From positions 1 through 45,604 of the forward strand of contig NZCD01000069.1 in NCBI GenBank assembly GCA_002688135.1: DNA of 45,604 nt, given 5' to 3'. This stretch comes from Parcubacteria group bacterium. GTDB lineage: Bacteria > Patescibacteriota > Patescibacteriia > Magasanikbacterales > GCA-002688135. Made by a program: the position numbers and the translations under genes. Of this stretch, positions 36,305 through 36,372 are shown in pieces (within the stretch, counting starts at the first letter, position 1; each line of letters starts with the position of its first letter). Under the pieces are notes generated by a model. It saw nothing but the letters and a program-made list of their open reading frames with translations. It searched no databases and was not told where the DNA came from.

Positions 36305-36372
36305 GGGGATGGTGTGGTACGGGATCGGAATTGTCAGTCCAGATCCCCGGGGTTCAACTCCCCGCATCTCCA
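36305..36372 (+). ncRNA. Miniature tmRNA-like / D-armless tRNA-like RNA with Ala identity
   Basis: GGGGATG/CATCTCC-A acceptor stem with G3.U70; T arm CGGGG-TTCAACT-CCCCG; upstream TGnTACAAT; downstream terminator. Confidence 0.75.

Follow-up and report, generated by a model that had tools for sequence, protein, structure and literature searches.

Alanine-identity tRNA-like RNAs with cognate antisense small RNAs: an apparently undescribed two-RNA module in Patescibacteria

Forms of transfer-messenger RNA (tmRNA) that carry no coding sequence (CDS) are known from mycobacteriophage DS6A, from plastids (~65 bp), and from jakobid and other mitochondria, according to the accessible text of two papers (PMC4131195 and PMC11915505). 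The same text describes an RNA made of the tRNA-like domain (TLD) only, like that of DS6A, as a strong inhibitor of tmRNA, whether chargeable or not, perhaps through titration of SmpB. In the window analyzed here, a 45,604-nt stretch of contig NZCD01000069.1 from a Parcubacteria group bacterium (assembly GCA_002688135.1; Patescibacteriota, Magasanikbacterales), a 68-nt element at positions 36305 to 36372 resembles such RNAs and has beside it the gene of a second small RNA (sRNA) predicted to pair with it. This two-RNA module, an alanine-identity tRNA mimic together with a cognate antisense sRNA, is apparently undescribed: neither Rfam 15 nor the searchable full-text literature, a body that leaves subscription journals and supplements outside, yielded an account of a tRNA-like RNA that has its own antisense partner. 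The features of the two genes, with window coordinates, strand, and the evidence for each, are as follows.

36305..36372, plus strand: tRNA-like (TLD-like) small RNA, type 1 (sequence, fold, 84.1 bits with the type 1 covariance model R1, family covariation)
36305-36311 with 36365-36371, plus strand: acceptor stem, 7 bp including G3.U70 (minimum free energy [MFE] fold)
36312-36320, plus strand: linker of 9 nt that contains GG and replaces the D arm (MFE fold)
36321-36347, plus strand: central hairpin of 9 pairs with one bulged A and an 8-nt loop at 36330-36337 (MFE fold)
36348-36364, plus strand: T-arm, 5 bp with a 7-nt loop (MFE fold)
36372, plus strand: discriminator A73, unpaired (MFE fold)
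36171..36235, minus strand: partner antisense sRNA, ~65 nt (fold and coordinates)
36208..36235, minus strand: antisense segment of the partner (direct repeat, duplex, orthogonality matrix)
36241..36269, minus strand: partner promoter, TTGACA, 17 nt, TACAAT, with 11 of 12 consensus positions (promoter scan)

The original prediction, made from the sequence, had described tmRNA-like ends with the alanyl-tRNA synthetase (AlaRS) determinants G3.U70 and A73, no D stem, both acceptor strands in normal order, and a single hairpin in place of the tag region and pseudoknots. Sequence and fold bear out each of these points, and together with the ARAGORN and Rfam results they also agree with the view that this is neither a 3' att remnant nor a permuted tmRNA. 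Taken as a single sequence, the fold (-30.3 kcal/mol) is only modestly above chance (z of -2.06; 6 of 200 shuffles were equally stable), and it is the family alignment described below that supports structure beyond chance. ARAGORN called neither a tRNA nor a tmRNA at the element, its window calls being a tRNA-Arg and a tRNA-Cys elsewhere, and Rfam at gathering thresholds matched these same two tRNAs and not the element. A canonical tRNA, for example an Asp GTC, had been considered at the outset; ARAGORN is negative, the tRNA model (RF00005) gave no match to the element at E ≤ 10 in an 801-nt local scan, and there is no D arm and no 5-bp anticodon stem with a 7-nt loop. In a permissive local Rfam scan, the best clan match was the tmRNA model (RF00023) with 32.1 bits against a gathering cutoff of 47, and mascRNA reached 32.9 bits against a cutoff of 42.5; the mascRNA model scores because a D-armless shape is common to both.

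The element thus has the hallmarks of the tmRNA TLD, with its 7-bp acceptor stem, G3.U70, A73, and T-arm. Its acceptor stem is identical to that of the ssrA gene of the same genome, and the T-loop is shared with standard tmRNA (RF00023). Unlike standard tmRNA, it has no pseudoknots, no mRNA-like domain (resume codon, tag frame, and stop), and no encoded CCA, its T-stem differs in sequence from that of the genome's ssrA, and the interval from linker to T-arm consists of the 27-nt hairpin alone. By sequence and fold it resembles the TLD-only tmRNAs of the DS6A-like and organellar kind. As far as these forms are described in the accessible text, it has in common with them the alanine-identity acceptor stem, the T-arm, a reduced D region, a loop-closed helix equivalent to P2, the lack of a tag frame, and a length of ~65 to 70 nt. 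It differs in that a full tmRNA coexists with it, in that it belongs to multicopy chromosomal units whose copies each have a dedicated, co-evolving antisense sRNA (none is mentioned for TLD-only forms in that text), and in that two related subtypes, types 2 and 3, possess D-like and anticodon-like arms. The open reading frames (ORFs) that overlap the element span promoter, element, and terminator together and have no other support. The assembly is supported by an 820-nt contig of sequencing run X1, the probable source, which spans 35909-36728 with zero differences, and by a 165-nt contig from a second run of the same study, which covers 36329-36493. We conclude that the element is a real gene for a tRNA-shaped RNA that retains the upper half of a tRNA-Ala or tmRNA, without anticodon function.

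The partner gene lies ~70 nt upstream of the element on the opposite strand, in divergent orientation. Its RNA is laid out as a single-stranded 5' tail of 21 nt (36235-36215), a hairpin (36214-36196), and a terminator hairpin with a U-run (36194-36171), with a predicted fold of -26.9 kcal/mol (z of -4.46; none of 200 shuffles was as stable). The promoter is directed away from the element, across a repeat at 36218-36234, and ends 5 nt before the pairing segment. On the plus strand, the 17 nt of this repeat are identical to 36322-36338, that is, to the 5' strand and loop of the element's central hairpin. In the predicted duplex (-41.6 kcal/mol), the partner tail and the first bases of its hairpin pair with element nt 8-35 (36312-36339), a span that takes in the GG linker and both the 5' strand and the loop of the central hairpin; the three other combinations of flank and strand at the locus gave -16.8 to -25.6 kcal/mol. 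On these models, the RNA-RNA interaction of partner and element is well supported. In having an adjacent gene pair in which one RNA is complementary to the transcript of the other, the locus agrees with toxin-antitoxin (TA) loci that have an RNA antitoxin. The idea that a hairpin stands in place of the mRNA domain was correct, but the hairpin is no mere cap, being the predicted target of a dedicated antisense gene; neither this gene nor membership in a family had been part of the original prediction. We also considered whether the pair might be a two-piece tmRNA with the partner as the coding piece, and rejected this, as the window partner has no stop-ended frame before its terminator and there is no conserved coding region among partners.

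The window genome (here G000; 1.05 Mb in 71 contigs, 95.7% complete) contains four elements according to a pattern scan, on contigs C69 (the window), C19, C22, and C20, in addition to a true tRNA-Ala(UGC). Relatives of its trigger factor place this genome among Patescibacteria, close to metagenome-assembled genomes titled Candidatus Magasanikbacteria and Falkowbacteria. Each element has an adjacent partner, and the four pairs are orthogonal, with cognate duplexes of -37.9 to -41.6 kcal/mol and noncognate duplexes of -11.3 to -25.3 kcal/mol. None of the four partners has a further match of more than 13 nt in the genome, and the remaining 11- to 13-mers are at chance level. The acceptor stems of the other three copies differ from that of the window element.

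Searching 41 related genomes by BLAST with the 261-nt locus returned terminator-like and T-arm fragments only. BLAST is too blunt for an RNA of this kind, and covariance models were therefore used. The Rfam tmRNA model, run on 31 relatives, recovered every full tmRNA along with many weak matches, mostly true tRNAs. Seven matches of 71 to 72 nt were all ARAGORN negative, had G3.U70 and A73, and had an adjacent complementary unit. Three subtypes can be distinguished: type 1, that of the window, has no D stem; type 2 has a short D-like hairpin; and type 3 combines a D-like hairpin with a long central arm that carries an 8-nt loop. Of 151 genomes in the order, 20 had R1 matches of 40 bits or more, 29 in total (among the weaker ones is true tRNA-Ala, which both R1 and the type 3 model R2 match at about 30 to 40 bits). 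ARAGORN made no call on 24 of the 36 R1 matches in the loci examined, called tRNA-Ala on 7, and assigned odd anticodons to 5; the odd calls for family members include Asp-gtc, Gly-acc, Ile-tat, and a 4-base anticodon. Of the 14 top R2 matches (13 loci) in other orders of the class, 13 were not tRNA-Ala, and in 10 of these 13 the partner outdid the next flank by at least 9.8 kcal/mol. The 12 top R2 loci from other classes of the phylum comprised 7 elements, from 5 genomes, and 5 true tRNAs. The Rfam tRNA model did not match types 2 and 3 at E ≤ 0.01. The module family is thus widespread in Patescibacteria, occurring in the order, in the class, and in other classes of the phylum. As a member of a family that spans several classes, the element does not fit the decayed, unconserved ssrA that had been named as a possible outcome.

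A blastn search of an annotated phage collection gave no match. In viral contigs, a 3'-end pattern had at least 120 matches; among the 80 examined, 71 were 3'-only fragments, 4 were tRNA-Ala, and the remaining 5 were other loci without a distinctive partner. One 79-nt stretch of a viral contig (L221) is TLD-like: its 5' end resembles that of tmRNA, and it combines a central hairpin and a T-arm with G3.U70/A73. ARAGORN makes no call on it, a distinctive partner is lacking, and it may be a phage TLD-only tmRNA of the DS6A kind. Another locus (L078; G028:C1:843885-843956) folds as a near-canonical cloverleaf and is called tRNA-Pro(UGG) by ARAGORN, yet has G3.U70 and A73; a 12-nt exact complement lies upstream, and pairing is stronger with its own flank than with six foreign ones. 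This locus may belong to the family as a more tRNA-like form. Modules also occur in tandem or in clusters, two or three per ~0.5 to 2 kb, as in L075 (1039-1572), contig C21 of G031, and contig C11 of G058.

Covariation was examined for two of the subtypes. For type 1 (17 sequences), 94.4% of cells are paired, compared with 36 to 65% in slid controls, and 15 of 21 pairs show compensatory changes, including all nine pairs of the central hairpin; G1-C72, G2-C71, and G3.U70 are invariant in all 17. This alignment leans toward structure because it was fitted to the model. For type 3 (18 sequences), the figures are 91.6% of cells, compared with 46 to 57%, and 16 of 22 pairs, and G3.U70 is present in all 18 while the neighboring pairs 4:69 and 5:68 covary. 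The central 8-nt loops follow a consensus of roughly Y-T-T-R-Y-C-A-N in the element alignments, and the stems are freely variable. UUR forms a U-turn recognition loop in other antisense systems; the loop is compatible with such a role, protein binding being an alternative.

Pairing with the partner was likewise specific across the family. The element's own flank beat six foreign flanks in 26 of 32 elements (chance, 1 in 7), with a mean of -40.9 kcal/mol for own flanks and a pooled control mean of -29.7 kcal/mol (standard deviation [SD], 5.8); for true or near-true tRNAs, the own flank was best in 2 of 9. Partner signals were scanned in 45 modules (L074 and L086, which have no partner, and L102, L102b, L111, L121, and L122 were omitted). 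A sigma-70-type promoter ends 3 to 11 nt before the pairing segment (3 to 8 nt except in one) in at least 24 of the 45, with an exact TTGACA in 19 of those 24, and in at least 34 partners a hairpin is followed by a T-run; the implied RNA length is roughly 57 to 83 nt. In all 45 modules, pairing starts at element nt 8-13 and ends at nt 34-47. Element and partner share a strand in most modules, with the partner upstream in 22 and downstream in 21; the window module is one of 2 in which the partner is on the opposite strand.

The modules are variably present. Two close relatives, whose trigger factor (Tig) is 87% and 77% identical, have tig, the terminator, and the promoter of the next gene, but no module. 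Since that promoter is conserved and these relatives are module free, the window carries ~200 to 250 extra bp with the module. The element adjoins tig, as originally noted, and its position there is incidental, because the two relatives keep the site without it. The C19 module has a syntenic counterpart in the congeneric genome G001. The flanks of the two are 82 to 87% identical, and promoters, acceptor stem, T-arm, and terminator are kept; the center of the element and the tail of the partner have both been replaced, and in either genome the two remain matched to each other. The C20 module likewise has a syntenic counterpart, on contig C9 of G001; the 501 bp of the module locus are 84.6% identical, and the syntenic alignment around it extends over 2060 bp at 78% identity. 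At one site where G001 has a module, the window genome has none, and its homologous module (69.7% over 241 bp) is located elsewhere. At this site, the G001 insertion (L062, 1040-1400; contig C1) holds, besides the module, a ~100-aa frame after the RNase HII gene. The site of another G001 module, of type 2, is occupied in the window genome by two overlapping ORFs of 73 and 89 aa (C68:5280-5820; L116, 333-820) with subthreshold matches to a ParD antitoxin and a RelE/HigB/YafQ toxin; judging by sequence, they are likely a ParD/RelE-type pair. No protein family recurs among 57 ORFs that flank 30 modules, the neighbors being assorted housekeeping genes. Taken together, the modules are multicopy, mutually orthogonal, and co-evolving; they have no protein gene associated with them, and their presence at intergenic sites of Patescibacteria varies.

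The same genome also has the full ssrA and the smpB for which the original prediction had suggested looking. Its tmRNA scores 103 bits, with an encoded CCA and a tag frame, and adjoins smpB (4616-5038) on contig C45. The element is therefore not a decayed ssrA, and the notion that it stands in for ssrA does not hold. Genes for AlaRS, a CCA-adding-family enzyme, and RNase III are present as well. The sole AlaRS-family match (C15:26558-27832) is a 589-aa frame that covers profile positions 2-435 of 552. This frame is short compared with typical bacterial AlaRS lengths, and a short AlaRS could matter for the recognition of tRNA-like substrates. In this genome, we found no ArfA, no short RF-1-domain protein (ArfB), and no NFACT/RqcH; its RF-1-domain frames are RF1- and RF2-sized only. 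Because tmRNA-SmpB is present and no ArfA or NFACT/RqcH was found, inhibiting trans-translation could be costly.

Among other described systems, type I TA loci and RNA-RNA "type VIII" pairs, as far as the sources consulted describe them, resemble the module in being adjacent small genes, each with promoter and terminator, in having ~17 to 30 nt of repeat-derived complementarity, in being multicopy, and in varying in presence between close relatives. Type I toxins are small, usually hydrophobic peptides translated from the target mRNA. Here there is no toxin ORF, both products being noncoding, and the element is 68 nt and tRNA shaped; a tRNA mimic as toxin was found in none of the type I and "type VIII" classes compared, within the parts of the sources available. 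The divergent loci tisB/istR-1 and zorO/orzO resemble the arrangement in the window. Irregular G3:U70 tRNAs, or allo-tRNAs, are charged by AlaRS in E. coli, some lie near TA loci, and two variants caused cell death on expression, according to the accessible text of Mukai et al. (2017; PMC5389517). They differ from the element in having 8/4 or 9/3 acceptor/T arrangements and real anticodon arms, in decoding, and in belonging to other phyla, and the word "antisense" has no occurrence in that paper. The tRNA-Other of Bacillus cereus (from partial sources) and mammalian mascRNA are both tRNA shaped and nondecoding, the latter also without a D arm; both come from unrelated lineages and contexts and have no partner RNA.

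The invariant AlaRS determinants on a nondecoding RNA suggest that the element is matured and alanylated, or recognized, by the tRNA-Ala or tmRNA machinery. Maturation would be tRNA-like, by RNase P, 3' trimming, and CCA addition, and the mature element would probably be alanylated. As a TLD mimic, it could engage SmpB, AlaRS, and EF-Tu; left unchecked, it would inhibit ribosome rescue or charging and act as an RNA toxin. The partner would be its specific RNA antitoxin. Pairing would begin where the partner tail docks on the 8-nt loop and would proceed along the 5' strand of the hairpin into the GG linker. The elbow and lower half of the element would be lost and the acceptor/T minihelix spared, and the resulting ~28-bp duplex might be a substrate of RNase III. 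Such a cassette would serve addiction, stress response, or phage defense. We give a probability of about 40% to this reading, namely, an RNA-only toxin/antitoxin-like module in which an alanine-identity mimic of tRNA or of the tmRNA TLD interferes with trans-translation or alanine charging and is neutralized by its cognate antisense RNA. It is favored because of the reported inhibition by TLD-only RNA in combination with the genomics of a multicopy, orthogonal, variably present, fast co-evolving, RNA-only system. Somewhat more tentatively, the modules could be a new class of RNA-only TA or abortive-defense cassette in which the TLD mimic shuts down ribosome rescue, in hosts apparently without a backup, and is held in check by a private, fast-diversifying antisense antitoxin, several orthogonal pairs coexisting in a 1-Mb genome.

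Several points weigh against a toxin/antitoxin-like role. The module is known here from sequence and predicted folds, and the toxin step would follow by analogy from a result with TLD-only RNA in E. coli that the accessible text cites secondhand. Part of the G3.U70 invariance is circular, as sequences with G3.U70 went into building the search models, and family members from related genomes are not independent. SmpB titration may not fit the whole family, as the D-like and anticodon-like arms of types 2 and 3 occupy the position of SmpB on the TLD. In the C19 and C22 modules, where the partner lies downstream on the same strand, no terminator is seen between the two genes; this layout is likely cotranscribed, which is unusual for a separately controlled toxin and antitoxin. 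Pairing of leader and trailer across A73 in the predicted precursor could hinder maturation. Stably inherited modules, such as the C20 module and its counterpart on C9 of G001, fit a housekeeping role as well as a selfish one, and the hot spot common to a module and a type II TA pair is a single case whose protein matches are below curated cutoffs.

Alternatively, the element might be a beneficial, regulated alanine carrier, either a tagless tmRNA-like rescue RNA that works with SmpB or a nonribosomal alanine donor for the cell wall or another aminoacyl transfer, with the partner as an ordinary antisense regulator. The strict conservation of the AlaRS determinants next to covarying pairs, the genes for AlaRS, the CCA-adding-family enzyme, and SmpB, and the synteny of some modules would all suit such a carrier, as would the suggestion, in the accessible text of PMC11915505, that the CDS-less tmRNA forms retained by organelles are still useful to the cell. 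We regard it as doubtful, however, as a complete tmRNA with smpB leaves no rescue gap to fill, no aminoacyl-transferase or other protein gene is associated with the modules (57 flanking ORFs), and neither four orthogonal copies in a 1-Mb genome nor the presence and absence in congeners, together with replacement of the recognition sequences at a syntenic locus, would be explained. It is unlikely that the roles are reversed, with the partner as an effector sRNA that has targets in trans and the tRNA-shaped RNA as its stable sponge or decoy, or that the pair is a switch for other genes. The partner does have classic sRNA anatomy (a single-stranded seed, a hairpin, and a terminator), and sRNA sponges derived from tRNAs exist, but the sole conserved property of partners is complementarity to their own element, the seed is replaced jointly with the element center at the syntenic locus, none of the four partners has another genomic match of more than 13 nt, and the strongly conserved features belong to the element.

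An unusual decoding tRNA, inserting alanine at codons or quadruplets read by the central loop and acting as a mistranslating or suppressor tRNA checked by the antisense RNA, would bring together the near-cloverleaf shape of types 2 and 3, the odd ARAGORN calls for some members, and the irregular G3:U70 tRNAs that are alanylated and decode in E. coli (PMC5389517, accessible text). It is very unlikely all the same: the window type has no D arm, and its 8-nt loop sits on a bulged stem of 9 bp; at the place of position 37, where a purine is expected, the consensus of the loops is C; the Rfam tRNA model is blind to types 2 and 3 at the E value given above, and ARAGORN is silent on two-thirds (24/36) of the model matches. 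Finally, a decayed ssrA duplicate, a tRNA-Ala pseudogene, an integration-site remnant, or a chance fold might have been suspected from the acceptor stem shared with ssrA, from the modest single-sequence z score, and from the fact that the 3' ends of tmRNAs and tRNAs are common att sites, as the 71 3'-only fragments among the 80 viral loci examined illustrate. Against this stand the intact pair of acceptor strands, the compensatory changes across the family, a promoter and terminator for each gene, and a partner that co-evolves with the element in a family spanning several classes, which make such an origin extremely improbable.

If the toxin/antitoxin-like reading is true, a chromosomal tRNA or tmRNA mimic is restrained by a dedicated antisense RNA, and the candidate phyla radiation, a group with hardly any known regulatory RNAs, gains a widespread small-RNA system. 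These organisms may depend on trans-translation, since no ArfA, ArfB, or RqcH was found, and the module could tie that process to toxin-antitoxin biology. The module would also provide natural sets of orthogonal RNA-RNA pairs on a conserved scaffold and bear on the relation between free-standing tRNA-like domains and the origin of tmRNA. Even without a toxin, a nondecoding RNA that strictly conserves G1-C72, G2-C71, G3.U70, and A73 makes a concrete case for nonribosomal or regulatory alanylation.

The transcription signals of the element and the remaining features around the module are the following.

36285..36293, plus strand: probable extended -10 promoter of the element, TG-n-TACAAT (read from the sequence)
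36299..36377, plus strand: predicted precursor (the fold of 36299-36379 has -38.3 kcal/mol and a z of -2.92)
36381..36406, no strand assigned: symmetric hairpin of 11 pairs with an A-run and a T-run at its sides (terminator scan; inverted repeat)
36199..36451, no strand assigned: DNA extra relative to the two close relatives, approximate extent (alignment)
36452..37756, minus strand: tig, trigger factor, context (Pfam Trigger_N and Trigger_C)
36125..36153, minus strand: promoter of the downstream 377-aa gene, context (promoter scan; kept in a relative that lacks the module)

The consensus scan does not list the element promoter, because it requires a -35 box at 16 to 18 nt. Transcription from it would be expected to start at about 36300, which would give a leader of 4 to 6 nt. 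In the predicted precursor fold, leader 36299-36304 pairs with trailer 36372-36377 and extends the acceptor stem to 13 bp, A73 included. Leader/trailer complementarity is also seen in L118 and L069, and in all three loci it would lengthen the acceptor stem by 4 to 6 bp, including A73; a GGUGG located ~6 nt upstream in type 3 is paired in the same way with the encoded CCA plus CC. In these models, such pairing may be a processing signal or a hindrance to maturation. The hairpin at 36381-36406 is likely a bidirectional terminator that serves the element on the plus strand and tig on the minus strand. The 377-aa gene itself (34962-36095) has no Pfam match. A strong G+C-rich hairpin without a T-run directly follows the tig stop codon at 36425-36447, and this palindrome is also matched by a small unrelated contig of run X1.

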